Below, one piece after another: positions 1-5,201 of a stretch of DNA of 21,562 nucleotides. The notes below the pieces were generated by a model. The model searched no databases and had not been told where the DNA came from. It was given only the letters and a program-made list of their open reading frames with translations. The position numbers were made by a program, and so were the translations under genes. Source of the DNA: Escherichia phage vB_EcoS-569R3. Where the stretch lies: the sequence record ON470597, one strand, 5' to 3'. The stretch's first letter is position 1, and each line of letters begins with the position of its first letter.

Positions 1-534
1 ATGAACGCAAAAATCAGATACGGCCTGTCGGCTGCCGTTCTGGCGCTGATTGCCGCTGGTGCGCCTGCGCCTGACATTCTCGACCAGTTTCTGGATGAAA
101 AGGAAGGTAACCACACCACGGCATACCGTGATGGCGCGGGTATCTGGACCATCTGCCGCGGTGCCATCCTGGTGGATGGCAAACCTGTCGTTCCGGGCAT
201 GAAGTTGTCGAAGGAAAAATGCGACCGGGTTAACGCCATTGAGCGTGATAAGGCGCTGGCATGGGTGGAGAAAAACATCAAAGTGCCATTGACCGAACCC
301 CAGAAAGCGGGGATCGCGTCATTCTGTCCGTACAACATTGGTCCCGGTAAGTGTTTCCCGTCGACGTTTTACAGACGAATTAATGCAGGTGATCGCAGGG
401 GAGCATGCGAAGCGATTCGCTGGTGGATTAAGGACGGTGGCAGAGACTGCCGTATTCGCTCAAATAACTGTTACGGTCAGGTATTCCGTCGTGACCAGGA
501 GAGCGCGCTGGCGTGCTGGGGAATCGACAGATAA
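1..534 (+). CDS. Phage endolysin (lysozyme R) with N-terminal SAR (signal-arrest-release)-like segment
   Basis: 177-aa ORF starting at the ATG at position 1, so the upstream RBS and holin are outside the window. The N-terminus YGLSAAVLALIAAGAPAP is weakly hydrophobic and Gly/Ala-rich, typical of SAR domains, followed by the T4-lysozyme-like catalytic region EKEGNHTTAYRDGAGIWTICRG (Glu...Asp...Thr spacing). Family assignment by motif recognition. Confidence 0.88.
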   Translation: MNAKIRYGLSAAVLALIAAGAPAPDILDQFLDEKEGNHTTAYRDGAGIWTICRGAILVDGKPVVPGMKLSKEKCDRVNAIERDKALAWVEKNIKVPLTEPQKAGIASFCPYNIGPGKCFPSTFYRRINAGDRRGACEAIRWWIKDGGRDCRIRSNNCYGQVFRRDQESALACWGIDR

Positions 535-624
535 GCAGAATATTTTGCTGAAAAATGAGGTTGGCCAACGCGGGCGGATAACACGAAGTCCTGTGAACTG
601 GCAAAACCTAAGTGAATAAAAGTA

Positions 625-663
625 AAAACCCCGTTTGTTGGCAGCAAGCGGGGTTTTGTTTTT
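625..663. terminator. Intrinsic terminator-like hairpin after the endolysin gene, possibly bidirectional
   Basis: AAAACCCCGUUUG / CAAGCGGGGUUUU inverted repeat (about 9 bp plus a GC-rich core CCCCG/CGGGG) followed by GTTTTT; the opposite strand also has a T-rich tail. Read directly from the sequence. Confidence 0.6.
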
Positions 664-728
664 ATGGCAGTAAGCTATGGGAGGCTGCCTTGATTGATTT
701 TAGCAAACTGATTAGGGAGTTGCGACTC

Positions 729-824
729 ATGATTAGTCAATTACCAAACTGGAAATTTTTGCTGGTCTGGAGCATCCCTTTTTTATGGGTAGTATCCCAG
801 TTAATTGTGGCAATTAAGGGGTAG
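729..824 (+). CDS. Small hydrophobic peptide (31 aa, single predicted TM helix), hypothetical
   Basis: ATG at 729 preceded by AGGGAG about 11 nt upstream; translation MISQLPNWKFLLVWSIPFLWVVSQLIVAIKG. Lies in the AT-rich insert between R and Rz. Too short for confident calling. Confidence 0.3.
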   Translation: MISQLPNWKFLLVWSIPFLWVVSQLIVAIKG

Positions 825-826
825 CT

Positions 827-958
827 ATGTCAGACAAACTCATAACGCCGGCAAAGGTCCTGTGTGTGATTGTCGGTATTTCATTTTCACTAATGCTGGT
901 TGCTCTTTTTCTGTCCCTCGCCTGGGTGATGTTGTCTTCGTCGGGGCTGCTGGGGTGA
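827..958 (+). CDS. Small hydrophobic membrane peptide (43 aa), hypothetical
   Basis: ATG at 827 with AAGGGG 6 nt upstream; translation MSDKLITPAKVLCVIVGISFSLMLVALFLSLAWVMLSSSGLLG, a polar N-terminus followed by one long hydrophobic helix. Starts 2 nt after the previous small ORF. Confidence 0.4.
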   Translation: MSDKLITPAKVLCVIVGISFSLMLVALFLSLAWVMLSSSGLLG

Positions 959-1077
959 CAGTGACTGATGACATCAGCAGAGCGCTGGCTTTTGCTATTA
1001 AGTGGGTGGCTGTTGGTATTGCTGTGTCTCCGATGCTGTATGGGCTGGCAAAACTGGTCATTGCGCTGAAATCGTGA
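955..1077 (+). CDS. Small hydrophobic peptide (40 aa, GTG start overlapping the previous stop as GTGA), hypothetical
   Basis: Translation (V/M)TVTDDISRALAFAIKWVAVGIAVSPMLYGLAKLVIALKS. Start/stop overlap suggests translational coupling. Shares the motif A-x-AFAI-x-x-VA-x-x-x-V with the next small ORF. Confidence 0.3.
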   Translation: MTVTDDISRALAFAIKWVAVGIAVSPMLYGLAKLVIALKS

Positions 1078-1088
1078 ACTTTAAAAAG

Positions 1089-1175
1089 ATGAGTGCTGAA
1101 CTTATTCGGGCAATGGCATTTGCCATTCGTATTGTGGCCATTGCTGTTCTGGTCTGGGCAATCCGTTGGTGGTGA
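1089..1175 (+). CDS. Small hydrophobic peptide (28 aa), hypothetical; paralogous motif to 955-1077
   Basis: Translation [28 protein letters not shown]; stop is 1 nt before the Rz ATG. No clear SD. Weak, loose resemblance to Ldr-type toxin peptides, not established. Confidence 0.25.
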
Positions 1176-1176
1176 T

Positions 1177-1671
1177 ATGAACCGTGTTCTGTGTGTGGTG
1201 ATTATTGTCATGCTGGTAGCCTGTGGTGTGCTTAGTCTGGGGCTGAATCATTACCGCGATAACGCCATCACCTACAAAGCGCAGCGCGATAAAAAAGTCA
1301 GTGAGCTGAAACTGGCGAATGCCACTATTACTGACATGCAGCAGCGCCAGCGAGATGTCGCTGCGCTTGATGCCAGATACACGAAGGAATTAGCCGATGC
1401 GAGAGCTGAAAATGAAACTCTGCGCGCTGATGTTGCCGCTGGTCGTAAGCGCCTGCGGGTCAACGCCACCTGCCCCGGTACCGTGCGTGAAGCCACCGGC
1501 ACCTCCAGCGTGGATAATGCAACCGGCCCCCGACTGGCAGACACCGCTGAACGGGATTATTTCATCCTCAGAGAACGGTTGATGACAATGCAGAAGCAGC
1601 TGGAAGGGGCGCAGGAATATATCCGCACTCAGTGCACTAAGCTGGCTTTTTATTATCCGGAGGATACATGA
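1177..1671 (+). CDS. Rz: Rz-type inner-membrane spanin (i-spanin)
   Basis: 164 aa with N-terminal TM segment [21 protein letters not shown] followed by a charged, coiled-coil-like periplasmic domain ([58 protein letters not shown]); follows the endolysin and contains an embedded Rz1 ORF. Confidence 0.88.
1397..1582 (+). CDS. Rz1: Rz1-type outer-membrane lipoprotein spanin (o-spanin), embedded in the +1 frame of Rz
   Basis: 61 aa, [20 protein letters not shown] with lipobox VSAC, then a proline-rich mature region ([38 protein letters not shown]) closely resembling lambda Rz1. Start could alternatively be the ATG at 1412. Confidence 0.85.
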
Positions 1672-1883
1672 AGAAATTACGGGTAACCGTAGAACCTTTT
1701 CAGGGAACAATTCCGTTCCGTATTTTGCAGCGTGGTCGTGTTCTTGTTGAAGGTTCGTTCAGTGGTAAATGTACGCAATTACACTCCCGGACCTTTCAGG
1801 TGAATGCCACGAATGAAGAGCTAACCGTGGAGTGTACGATGAATGCCGCTAAATGCCGCATGGTATTACAGCCAGTGTGTTGA
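1668..1883 (+). CDS. Hypothetical 71-aa protein translationally coupled to Rz
   Basis: ATG overlaps the Rz stop (ATGA) with GGAGGA 5 nt upstream; translation [71 protein letters not shown]. No recognisable family. Confidence 0.5.
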
Positions 1884-2979: not shown

Positions 2980-3543
2980 GTGCTGACAACGCAAAAACGA
3001 AAATTTGCGCTGGCGCTCATGTCCGGGAAAAACAAAACAGCGTCAGCCATTGCCGCCGGTTATTCGGCGAAGACCGCCAGGGTTAAAGGCTCGCAGCTGG
3101 CAAAAGATCCTGAGGTGCTTGCGTTTATAGCCCGTAAACAATGCGAGACGGTGGAGGTGGATGAGGTTCCTGTTTACCGGCAGAAAAAATCAGAGCAGGA
3201 GGATAAACCCCGTCGCCGTGAGGCGGCTGCAATACCACAGCCGGACGAAAACAATCTGGAGATGCCACCGTCCGCGGTGATGTCTCCTGGTATTGAATAT
3301 ATGGAGGATGGTCTTCCCGATCCGGTGAAAGCCATGGGGCGGATCCTGGTGGAAAACCTCTGCATTGATCCGAAACTGGCACTGGATGCGGCCTGGCGTC
3401 TGGCGCAGTTCACGCACCATAAAAAAGGGGATACCGGGAAAAAATCGGCAAAAGGTGATGCCGCGAAAAAAGCGGCTAACCGTTTTGCGGTGCCACCGCC
3501 CCCCCGACTGGTGGTGAATAACGATAATGAGGGCAACGGATGA
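2980..3543 (+). CDS. Terminase small subunit
   Basis: 187 aa; N-terminal HTH-like region KRKFALALMSGKNKTASAIAAGYSAKTARVKGSQLAKDPEVLAFI typical of phage terminase small subunits; stop overlaps the terL start (ATGA). Start uncertain: GTG at 2980 is only 2 nt after GAGGAGG; CTG at 2983 or ATG at 3019 are alternatives. Confidence 0.78.
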   Translation: MLTTQKRKFALALMSGKNKTASAIAAGYSAKTARVKGSQLAKDPEVLAFIARKQCETVEVDEVPVYRQKKSEQEDKPRRREAAAIPQPDENNLEMPPSAVMSPGIEYMEDGLPDPVKAMGRILVENLCIDPKLALDAAWRLAQFTHHKKGDTGKKSAKGDAAKKAANRFAVPPPPRLVVNNDNEGNG

Positions 3544-5201
3544 TACCTGTATGGAGCACAGCCTGCCCGGACTGGGCAGAGCGCCTGAAAAAGGGGCTGT
3601 CGATTATTCCGGATCCGATTTATCCGGACGAGGCCGCACATGCCCTGGCGATTTTTAAACAACTGCGGATTGTGGATGCACCTGGTAGCCCTACGTTCGG
3701 GGAGTCCTGTGCACCGTGGGTGTTTGACCTGGTGGCGGCCCTGTTTGGCTCCTACGATGCGCAGACCGGTGTACGCCATATCAAGGAAGTTTTTATCCTT
3801 ATCCCCAAGAAAAACTCGAAGTCCACGCTGGCCGCGGGGATCATGATGACTGCACTGTTACTGAACTGGCGGCAGGCGGCGGGTTACACGATTCTGGCCC
3901 CGACTGTGGAGGTGGCGGCCAACGCCTTCAACCCTGCCCGGGATATGGTACGACGTGACGATGATCTGGATGACCTCTGCCAGGTACAGACCCATATCCG
4001 GACCATCACCCACCGAGTGACGGACACCACCCTGAAGGTGGTGGCAGCCGATCCGAATACGGTGTCCGGTATCAAGTCCGTGGGTACGCTGATTGATGAG
4101 TTGTGGCTGTTTGGCAAGCAGTGCAAGGCGGAGGACATGTTACGTGAAGCCATAGGCGGCCTTGCCTCCCGCCCGGAAGGGTTTGTGGTGTATACGACCA
4201 CCCAGTCGAATGAACCGCCCGCCGGGGTGTTCAGACAGAAACTGCAGTACGCCCGGGATGTGCGCGACGGCAAAATTCATGATCCGCACTTTCTGCCGGT
4301 GATATTTGAACACCCTCCTGAAATGGTGGAAAGCGGGACTAACCTGCTGATGGAAAACCTCGCCATGGTCAATCCGAATCTCGGCTATTCAGTGGATGAG
4401 GCCTTTCTGTACCGGGAGTACCGTAAAGCCCGGGAAGCCGGTGAAGAGACATTCCGGGGGTTCATGTCAAAACACGCCAATGTGGAAATTGGTCTTGCCC
4501 TGCGCTCTGACCGCTGGGCGGGGGCTGATTTCTGGGAAGAGCAGGGCCGTTGTATCAGCCTGGACGATATCCTGCGTCGTGCTGATGTGGTGACGGTGGG
4601 GATTGACGGCGGAGGGCTGGATGATCTGCTGGGGATGTATGTGATTGGGCGTGACCGGGAGACCCGCGAATGGCTGGGCTGGGGCCATGCCTGGGCGCAT
4701 GAAACCGCGGTGGTCCGACGGAAGAGCGAGGCGTCCCGGTTTCAGGATCTTGTTGCCTGTGGAGATATGACCATTGTCCGGCGTGTCGGGGATGACACGG
4801 CGGAAGTGGCGGAATATGTGCGTCGCATTCATGAGGCTGAGTTACTGGACCATATCGGTATTGACCCGTCAGGGGTGGGGCAGATTCTGGATTCACTGGC
4901 GGAAGCCGGGATCCCCGACGGAATTGTGGTGGGGATAAGCCAGGGCTGGAAACTGGGCGGGGCCATTAAAACCACCGAGCGCAAACTGGCTGAAGGGGTG
5001 CTGGTGCATGGTGACCAGCCCCTGATGGCCTGGTGTGTCGGCAATGCCCGGGTGGAGCCTAAAGGTAACGCCATTCTTATCACCAAACAGGCCAGTGGAC
5101 GGGGAAAAATTGACCCGCTGATGGCGCTGTTCAATGCGGTCTCCCTGATGTCCCTTAACCCGGAACCGAAAAAGAAAGAATATGCGGTTTTTTTCATATA
5201 A
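3540..5201 (+). CDS. Terminase large subunit (Terminase_1 / HK97-type)
   Basis: 553 aa; Walker-A-like LIPKKNSKST; C-terminal nuclease region with VTVGIDGGGLDD acidic motif; translationally coupled to terS. Confidence 0.9.
   Translation: MIPVWSTACPDWAERLKKGLSIIPDPIYPDEAAHALAIFKQLRIVDAPGSPTFGESCAPWVFDLVAALFGSYDAQTGVRHIKEVFILIPKKNSKSTLAAGIMMTALLLNWRQAAGYTILAPTVEVAANAFNPARDMVRRDDDLDDLCQVQTHIRTITHRVTDTTLKVVAADPNTVSGIKSVGTLIDELWLFGKQCKAEDMLREAIGGLASRPEGFVVYTTTQSNEPPAGVFRQKLQYARDVRDGKIHDPHFLPVIFEHPPEMVESGTNLLMENLAMVNPNLGYSVDEAFLYREYRKAREAGEETFRGFMSKHANVEIGLALRSDRWAGADFWEEQGRCISLDDILRRADVVTVGIDGGGLDDLLGMYVIGRDRETREWLGWGHAWAHETAVVRRKSEASRFQDLVACGDMTIVRRVGDDTAEVAEYVRRIHEAELLDHIGIDPSGVGQILDSLAEAGIPDGIVVGISQGWKLGGAIKTTERKLAEGVLVHGDQPLMAWCVGNARVEPKGNAILITKQASGRGKIDPLMALFNAVSLMSLNPEPKKKEYAVFFI

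Follow-up and report, generated by a model that had tools for sequence, protein, structure and literature searches.

Between the endolysin gene R and the spanin gene Rz of Escherichia phage vB_EcoS-569R3 lie four short, closely packed open reading frames (ORFs), here called o1 to o4, and the question raised by this locus is whether they are genes and, if so, what such small products might do in the lysis region of a phage. The window analyzed is the whole 21,562-nucleotide stretch of this phage (sequence record ON470597), in which the R-Rz spacer occupies 535-1176 and measures 642 bp at a GC content of 46.1%, compared with 55.1% in R, 53.9% in Rz and 56.4% over the window, much as a first-pass annotation had described it (about 640 bp of AT-rich DNA). 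We find that o1-o4 are genuine, narrowly distributed protein-coding genes for peptides of 28-44 residues, and the best explanation of the whole, to which we assign a probability of roughly 0.42, is that they encode late-expressed inner-membrane peptides that would act at lysis and be subject to antisense silencing. The four ORFs are laid out as follows.

690-824, plus strand: o1 in its long form, 44 residues from TTG 690, with the Shine-Dalgarno (SD) sequence GGGAGG at 680-685; alternatively 729-824 in its short form, 31 residues from ATG 729, with the SD sequence GGGAG; a single hydrophobic helix, phrog_6632, paralog of o3.
827-958, plus strand: o2, 43 residues, with a strong transmembrane (TM) helix at about residues 11-32; phrog_4906; PGAP WP_001280935.1, hypothetical protein.
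955-1077, plus strand: o3, 40 residues, with a GTG start in the overlap with the o2 stop; a marginally hydrophobic helix rich in Gly, Ala and Ser; phrog_1115.
1089-1175, plus strand: o4, 28 residues; phrog_4493; PGAP WP_032140280.1; paralog of the N-terminal half of o3.

The tight packing noted at first pass holds on remeasurement, with the coordinates confirmed: o1 and o2 are separated by 2 nt, o2 and o3 share a GTGA overlap at 955-958, and the o4 stop codon (1173-1175) ends 1 nt before the Rz ATG at 1177, to which can be added an o3-o4 distance of 11 nt that had gone unmentioned. No terminator lies between the array and Rz.

Evidence that the four frames are used came from approximately 326 related loci collected in IMG/VR, among GenBank phages and in E. 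coli genomes, with some contigs represented repeatedly. The distinct DNA variants of each ORF were joined in a minimum spanning tree and synonymous and nonsynonymous differences were counted along its edges in all three frames. A synonymous excess appeared in the annotated frame only, for o1 (omega about 0.23, p = 4e-9), o2 (omega about 0.35, p = 4e-13), o3 (omega about 0.19, p = 5e-9) and o4 (omega about 0.30, p = 8e-4), the two alternative frames of each ORF being about neutral (omega about 0.7 to 2.7). Because this purifying selection is frame-specific, the ORF lengths are kept and all four ORFs match PHROG families, o1-o4 are real genes. The families in question are of unknown function (o1, phrog_6632, 6e-5; o2, phrog_4906, 4.5e-21; o3, phrog_1115, 6e-25; o4, phrog_4493, 4e-6); in PGAP annotation, o2, o3 and o4 already figure as hypothetical proteins.

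The first-pass annotation had allowed for a degraded membrane-protein gene broken by frameshifts, and the ORFs could also be read as chance frames. They are indeed short, a 90-residue frame (805-1077) and a 123-residue antisense ORF (840-1211) stand open in the window, and phrog_3246 is a profile of 90 positions. The selection data contradict this reading: the selection is specific to three different frames, the length of o2 is preserved, and the modules occur singly, separately and reordered elsewhere, which would break any long frame. Moreover, every homolog, whether from E. coli, Shigella or Salmonella, is a small protein, and sequence and profile searches of 5.8 billion and 1.84 billion proteins returned no long homolog of the array ORFs. 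Amino-acid conservation in related prophages, proposed earlier as a check, was seen as protein-level selection in all four ORFs, with no longer intact homolog. The reading as debris of a larger gene is therefore refuted, and chance is hardly tenable. Two further frames were considered and set aside, the 123-residue antisense ORF since shuffled architectures break its frame, and a 33-residue ORF at 968-1069 since this +1 frame of o3 is about neutral (omega about 0.8, no synonymous excess). Individual modules do decay in some prophages, as illustrated by a frameshifted o2 allele (MSDKLITLAKILCVIVGISFSLMLVALRLDDVVFVG...) that recurs in eight loci (e.g. the P0147 type); in another locus (L002) a copy of o3 has no usable start.

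The narrowness of the group is most evident for o2, which has 103 homologs in E. coli, nearly all of 43-44 residues, a length kept down to about 55-65% identity. A profile hidden Markov model of o2 matched only 29 of 1.84 billion protein representatives, all of them short, and a scan of one genome per species gave a single match, on a 328-bp contig. This contig (L248, NZ_JPLE01000251.1), labeled 'Xanthomonas pisi', carries the 3' end of an E. coli-type ant gene and an o2 gene and is almost certainly assembly contamination. No matches to the peptides were found in Pfam, NCBIfam, PADLOC or PDB sequence searches, and no paper specific to these ORFs, to their accessions or to small reading frames in the R-Rz gap turned up in literature searches. 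Databases do include the peptides, whether as hypothetical proteins or within PHROG families without an assigned function, but they appear uncharacterized.

By sequence comparison the peptides fall into two families, o2 alone and the paralogs o1, o3 and o4. The similarity of o3 and o4, described at first pass as a duplicated motif visible also in the DNA, is clear at the protein level (shuffle p = 2e-4) and only modest at the DNA level, where the longest repeat is 15 nt at 80% and pairwise identity is patchy. The o1 and o3 peptides share the C-terminal motif L-I/V-V/I-A-I/L-K-G/S (shuffle p = 0.01), and the leader and N-terminal extension of o1 resemble those of o3. This extension comprises the 13 codons upstream of ATG 729. 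When divergent loci that begin with o1 are aligned, it opens with TTG 690 in the window and with GTG in loci L274-L276, with GGGAGG or AGGGAG before the start, and four of its five base changes are synonymous. Since an in-frame TTG or GTG is conserved in divergent loci and preceded by an SD sequence, o1 probably starts at TTG 690, which gives 44 residues and places the beginning of the array upstream of the start originally proposed.

The start of o3 is less uniform, as the window copy is N-terminally shortened relative to a family that elsewhere has 48 or 60 residues; the 60-residue start has a strong SD sequence and is open in 20 of the 20 variants seen. PGAP sets the o3 start differently (922-1077). 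GTG 955 is supported as a start because in locus L006 the same o2 3' end (CTGCTGGGGTGA) precedes an Rz gene that starts with GTG. For a 60-residue member of the o3 family, AlphaFold2 predicted a short, basic helix at residues 2-16 and a helix of 38 residues at 22-59 (pLDDT 79.5). Conserved positions lie within the helices, as in the intrahelical o3 motif AFAIKW.AVG.AVS..YG, and in o2 residues G17, F20, M23, V25, W33 and L36 are invariant.

These conserved residues bear on the idea that the ORFs are mere leaders whose translation carries ribosomes to the Rz start, the peptide sequence being irrelevant. In several architectures the junction with the Rz start does measure only 1-3 nt or is an overlap (the array abuts or overlaps that start in the window, L006 and L209), and R and Rz overlap directly in phages that have no insert. 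Translational coupling alone, however, would not account for purifying selection on amino acids or for invariant intramembrane Gly, Ser, Phe and Trp residues; a single ORF would suffice for it, and up to four are kept, and in some loci a dam gene lies between the array and Rz. We consider this explanation very improbable.

The earlier description of each peptide as a single TM helix needs grading. In a crude 19-residue Hessa-scale window, o2 scored -3.5 and is strongly hydrophobic (the Rz anchor scored -3.4), o1 (+1.4) and o4 (+1.2) are intermediate, and o3 (+3.8) is marginal, falling between pinholin TMD2 (+0.8) and the signal-anchor-release (SAR) domain of R (+5.4). The C-termini of o1-o4 read KG, SSSGLLG, LKS and RWW, respectively, none of them a basic tail. 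An origin of o2 as a duplicated 5' end of Rz was dropped, as its similarity to the Rz anchor (VLCV...MLVA) was not significant (shuffle p = 0.06). Also left unused was P0062, encoded at 43-222 of a 554-bp ENA metagenome scaffold (L087), in which the 34 N-terminal residues of a class II holin are joined to the 22 C-terminal residues of o3. The junction lies where both partners read QW/KW-[AV]A[IV]G. P0062, seen on this one scaffold, could be a recombinant formed within that brief stretch of similarity, but is probably a chimera of the assembly.

The distribution of the ORFs combines an unvarying location with considerable variety in order. At least part of the spacer was matched in 2068 of 5426 complete E. 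coli genomes (38%) and most of the four-gene form in 587, and among the 326 fetched loci, wherever flanks are present, the ORFs lie either between R and Rz or between a GH108 endolysin gene and a gene for a 60-residue lipoprotein. More than 12 architectures were seen, including R-o3-o2-Rz, R-o1-o2-o3-o4-Rz (the window type), R-o3-o2-o3-o4-Rz, R-o3-o4-Rz and R-o1-o2-o3-Rz, as well as others that include additional cargo, namely R-Ant-o2-Rz (in Shiga toxin (Stx) phages), R-Ant(KilAC)-o1-o2-Rz and R-Ant-o2-o4-Dam-Rz. The module o2 is the core, present in nearly all of them. In the Stx2 phage 933W (L330 5421-5570; NC_000924 27420-27569), an intact o2 homolog (MISDKLITLVKSLCVLVGISFLVMLVAIFFSTAWRVLTLSGLVG) occupies the 153-nt gap between ant and Rz, where it overlaps the ant stop codon, ends 7 nt before the Rz ATG and is unannotated in RefSeq. 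The claim that lambdoid cassettes run without a spacer was thus too strong, the R-Rz gap being a regular site for cargo (ant, dam and small ORFs) in Stx phages and their relatives. In loci L094 (914-2520) and L106 (711-1406), the gap carries genes for a P22-type Ant (PF10547), a KilAC-type Ant (PF03374) and a Dam-like D12 methyltransferase (PF02086), with small ORFs that overlap or abut the ends of the ant and dam genes.

The o3-o2 pair also occurs, with 94-98% identity in o3, in an unrelated lysis cassette (L168 467-1986; IMG/VR UViG_2778261085_000009). This cassette opens with genes for a holin with three TM helices (PF05449) and a soluble endolysin that combines GH108 and PG_binding_3 domains; a sar-like hairpin comes next, ahead of o3 (60 residues), o2 (44 residues) and a lipoprotein gene. 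The lipoprotein of 60 residues (lipobox LVGC; phrog_7528, unknown function) takes the position that Rz has elsewhere, and no recognizable i-spanin was found near this cassette. The array is better conserved than its neighbors, being nearly invariant where R and Rz vary, and o1 is 87-90% identical in loci whose Rz proteins are only 45% identical. Viewed across these relatives, the R-Rz spacer is best explained as an accessory cassette that moves horizontally and belongs to the late (lysis) operon of the phage.

Mobility of this kind invites the view that the array is a host-directed moron, active in superinfection exclusion, membrane stress tolerance or some other lysogenic conversion, and that the R-Rz gap merely tolerates insertions. 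The ant and dam cargo in the same gap, the movement between unrelated lysis cassettes, a conservation exceeding that of R and Rz, a GC content below that of the flanks (46% vs 55%) and dispensability in relatives all favor it. Of the marks of a moron in the Hendrix/Juhala sense, presence or absence between colinear genomes together with deviant base composition was found, and a promoter of its own upstream with a terminator downstream was not. No promoter-like site reads into the ORFs, which have a terminator directly upstream, there is none before Rz (the junction being 1 nt), PADLOC gave no matches, and in no fetched locus do the ORFs lie anywhere but in the lysis-cassette position. The predicted antisense RNA described below would, moreover, oppose expression in a lysogen. 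A host-directed moron is therefore unlikely, although it is the main rival to peptides that act at lysis.

How the array is expressed depends on the segment between R and o1, the relevant features of which are as follows.

535-624, no strand: non-coding stretch 3' of R, with more polymorphism among near-identical prophages than any other part of the spacer.
625-657, no strand: intrinsic terminator hairpin, G+C-rich, 15 pairs, with an A-run at 624-628 and a T-run at 654-665, probably bidirectional.
618-690, minus strand: predicted antisense RNA of about 70 nt, with a 5' hairpin (GGCAG/CUGCC) that carries the anti-SD sequence CCUCCC in its loop, followed by the terminator hairpin and a U-run.
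697-705, minus strand: candidate extended -10 box of the antisense promoter, TGCTAAAAT on the minus strand (ATTTTAGCA on the plus strand), at +8 to +13 of the o1 start.

Of the 24 polymorphic sites in the spacer (near-identical variants, nine distinct sequences), 19 cluster in some 60 nt of the non-coding stretch (550-608) and five lie in the ORF array. The intrinsic terminator that had been placed ahead of the ORFs was recovered by a terminator scan, with its 15 pairs and T-run, and the fold of the leader has z = -4.0. A hairpin stands 3' of the endolysin gene in a representative of each leader type examined, and its A-run and T-run are both kept in 33 sequence variants whose inner stems differ; in L274 the upstream A-run is conserved though the plus-strand T-run is poor. 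From these sequences the terminator is probably bidirectional and would form the 3' end of an antisense RNA on the minus strand. Nothing promoter-like was found on the plus strand by a consensus scan of the spacers of the window, L006 and L168, and in L006, where o3 comes first, the start codon follows the hairpin at a distance of only about 34 nt. With no sense promoter in the scan and a terminator just upstream, we infer that the array is expressed late, by read-through.

The predicted antisense RNA is complementary to the SD sequence and start codon of long o1, and its layout recalls that of sar and ant in phage P22. In the P22 record, the end of arc is followed by the sar terminator, the 70-nt sar RNA is encoded on the minus strand and starts 1 nt before the ant ATG, and Psar lies within the first 35 nt of ant; its -10 box, TGCTATACT (AGTATAGCA on the plus strand), occupies +7 to +12 of ant, where the annotated promoter (15097-15125) has its 3' edge. 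The predicted window element agrees with the annotated arc-sar-ant region base for base in geometry, and also in -10 offset and predicted fold. In L274 the box is kept as TGCTAATAT despite an amino-acid change, and loci that begin with o3 have TATACT or TATAAT at the same offset, on the minus strand in the first codons of the 60-residue o3, with a -35-like TAGTCA at a spacing of 18. A -10 box at this offset has thus been retained across three different codings (N-S-I, K-Y-K and D-F-S), and all antisense candidates fold into two hairpins, as does P22 sar. Another minus-strand promoter-like site, 833->804, was dropped as the antisense promoter, as by eye it was not conserved in other o1 variants.

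The hairpin of L168 shares 25 of 30 bases with the P22 sar terminator, including an identical core of 14 nt (shuffle p < 0.0005). Direct similarity between the window hairpin and P22 is not significant, and the two are linked by intermediates: L168 to L276 (61/74 bases), L276 to the window (100/124), L006 to the window (52/55) and L168 to L006 (74/83). In L168 the Rfam sar model gave a weak, though full-length, match on the predicted strand and at the predicted coordinates; its 23.2 bits (E = 0.013, 231 nt searched) fall short of the gathering score, which is 43. In the window spacer Rfam gave only sub-threshold, terminator-like matches. On balance, we put a sar-like antisense RNA over the translation start of o1 at slightly better than even odds. 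The resemblance to P22 immI sar/ant (RF00262) extends to the succession of gene end, A-run/T-run hairpin, SD sequence, start codon, minus-strand -10 box at +7/+8 to +13 and, as predicted for the window, RNA of about 70 nt with two hairpins over the ribosome-binding site, and in relatives ant genes themselves occupy the same R-Rz gap and the L168-type hairpin is homologous to the sar terminator. Unlike in P22, the target in the array would be a 44-residue membrane peptide rather than ant, the setting is a lysis cassette rather than immI, with no arc or mnt, and the window RNA has no Rfam score, that of L168 lying below gathering.

An antisense RNA over a start codon is also what a type I toxin-antitoxin module would show, in which the peptides, o1 first among them, would be membrane toxins and the RNA the antitoxin, stabilizing the prophage or aborting infections. 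Like the type I toxins Hok, Ldr, Ibs, ShoB, TisB and Zor, the peptides are hydrophobic and shorter than 60 residues, the candidate cis-antisense RNA overlaps both ribosome-binding site and start codon, and there are sub-threshold Rfam alignments to ohsC and rdlD at the same hairpin, probably generic terminator matches. Unlike those toxin genes, the array has no promoter of its own in the consensus scan and its four peptides are encoded polycistronically with Rz in the late operon, rather than as the stand-alone locus of own-promoter toxin gene and antisense RNA that defines such modules. Furthermore, the four peptides would have to share one antisense RNA, the closest relative of that RNA is the phage regulator sar and not an antitoxin, and no peptide matches a known toxin family in Pfam or NCBIfam. 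The earlier suggestion of a type I toxin-like moron thus retains a probable cis-antisense RNA over the first ribosome-binding site and fails on the sense promoter and the late polycistron; we regard a type I module as improbable.

The reading that we prefer, late inner-membrane peptides acting at lysis, also has to fit the cassette in which the array resides, the genes of which are as follows.

1-534, plus strand: R, a SAR-type endolysin of 177 residues; Pfam PF00959 (Phage_lysozyme), 9e-24; phrog_7, endolysin; named rrrQ lysozyme by PGAP in identical genomes.
1177-1671, plus strand: Rz, the i-spanin, 164 residues; PF03245, 4e-51; phrog_13; directly abuts the small-ORF array.
1397-1582, plus strand: Rz1, the o-spanin, embedded in Rz; PF06085, 2e-21; phrog_3198.

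In identical E. coli genomes the gene upstream of R encodes a 71-residue, S21-like class II holin, and the N-terminus of R is a hydrophobic segment rich in Ala and Gly (+5.4 on the crude scale used above). Because of these two features, the lysis cassette of the window is, as judged by its genes, of the pinholin/SAR-endolysin type. We have high confidence in the anatomy of the genes and of the cassette as described here.

Under the preferred explanation, the peptides would be made mainly when Q-antiterminated late transcription reads through the terminator. In a lysogen, the antisense RNA, starting from the extended -10 box in the first o1 codons in the P22 sar/ant layout, would pair with the SD sequence and start codon of o1 and silence leaky translation. 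After induction, the peptides would insert in the inner membrane, o2 as a stable anchor and o1, o3 and o4 with weaker helices rich in small residues, and would most likely modulate the membrane step of lysis, whether through holin triggering and timing or through membrane integrity before spanin action. Since the cassette is found with holins and endolysins that are unrelated to one another, a target in the host, either its membrane or one of its proteins, is more likely than one specific partner encoded by the phage. Taken by itself, a lysis-related function of the peptides is a tentative proposal, somewhat short of an even chance. The accessory lysis regulators suggested at first pass fit the strict lysis-cassette position and the lack of an own promoter, and the associated idea of a pinholin or SAR-endolysin partner loses ground, as o3-o2 is found as well in a cassette whose holin has three TM helices and whose GH108 endolysin is soluble. 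A bolder version would have interchangeable inner-membrane lysis micro-proteins of 28-60 residues, silenced by a sar-type RNA and released late, set lysis timing independently of the holin clock, which we think quite unlikely.

Several observations weigh against late peptides that act at lysis and are silenced by an antisense RNA. The genes ant and dam, which have no role in lysis, share the R-Rz gap, so that position alone could mark a site of tolerated cargo, and the better conservation of the cassette than of its neighbors fits a self-contained mobile moron. The cassette is also dispensable, given the many phages that have the same holin, R and Rz types without it, such as K-12 Qin, which lacks any spacer. 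The similarity of o3 to pinholin TMD2 is weak (6/16 identities; BLASTP E = 0.005 for a single pair; shuffle p = 0.004 before correction). As for the RNA, Rfam sar (RF00262) gave no match in window positions 600-720 at E <= 10, the antisense -35 is poor and a two-hexamer scan does not call this promoter, a G-U pair of the window hairpin becomes a C-A mismatch on the minus strand, and covariation recovered only the outer terminator stem, which cannot distinguish the strands.

Comparison with known lysis genes places the array near several of them and within none. Phage P2 encodes LysA, a putative antiholin that affects lysis timing, between endolysin K and the i-spanin gene lysB; LysA has about 140 residues and several TM helices. 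In P1, the small membrane-protein genes lydD-lydE follow the SAR endolysin gene lyz in the late operon with overlapping junctions, and LydD modulates lysis (PMC9025707). LydD has 84 residues, two TM helices and a highly basic C-terminus, in contrast to the 28-44 residues, one helix and lack of a basic tail in o1-o4, which have no similarity to Pfam or PHROG lysis families. The releasin of Mu, gp25, is a small membrane-tethered protein from the lysis region that acts on the SAR endolysin (PMC9239132). It has a sizeable cytoplasmic domain, whereas the o3-o2 pair also accompanies a soluble GH108 endolysin, and o1-o4 gave no match to DUF2730, the Mu releasin family, with no Pfam hit at E <= 1. No Pfam, NCBIfam or PHROG lysis-category match connected o1-o4 with holins or pinholins (e.g. 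Phage_holin_2_1, S21 type), and they lack the charged, usually basic C-terminal tail of holins. Nor do they resemble spanins, having at most 12 residues beyond the helix and no lipobox, and Rz and Rz1 are present separately. By this comparison, the array would be a set of accessory small membrane proteins of the lysis region, here in the form of a shuffled multi-gene array with sar-type control.

Insertions around these genes are not confined to the R-Rz spacer. In L001 (1279-1623), upstream of the window, a YdfR-family gene and an antisense hypothetical ORF lie between the holin and endolysin genes; with this insert in addition to that between R and Rz, the cassette is interrupted at both junctions. 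Downstream, a 71-residue ORF (1668-1883, plus strand; hypothetical protein in PGAP) has an ATGA overlap with the Rz stop and matches only positions 100-165 of the 291-position phrog_2571, which gives it the appearance of a fragment of a longer gene. A YlcI/YnfO-family gene on the minus strand (2082-2282) is followed by an HNH endonuclease gene on the plus strand (2324-2689), which stands directly upstream of the genes for the small and large terminase subunits (2980-5201, plus strand) in the usual HNH-terminase pairing of HK97-like packaging modules. The remainder of the window is an ordinary HNH-terminase-portal-head-tail module.

The lambdoid S-R-Rz/Rz1 genes are among the best-understood gene sets in virology, and the spacer genes described here are at best annotated as hypothetical. 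What is new is the probable TTG 690 start of o1 and the probably bidirectional terminator with its predicted antisense RNA of about 70 nt. A sar-like RNA, if real, would bring a classic P22 regulatory device to bear on another target, in a genomic location new to it. The micro-proteins, if borne out, would constitute a class not studied before and present in much of the E. coli and Shigella prophage population, Stx phages (e.g. 933W) among them. Should they act on the host, they would represent widespread, conserved single-helix membrane proteins in a natural combinatorial library of arrangements, and should they affect the timing of lysis, they would have a bearing on how many phages are produced and on how much Shiga toxin is released, and when.

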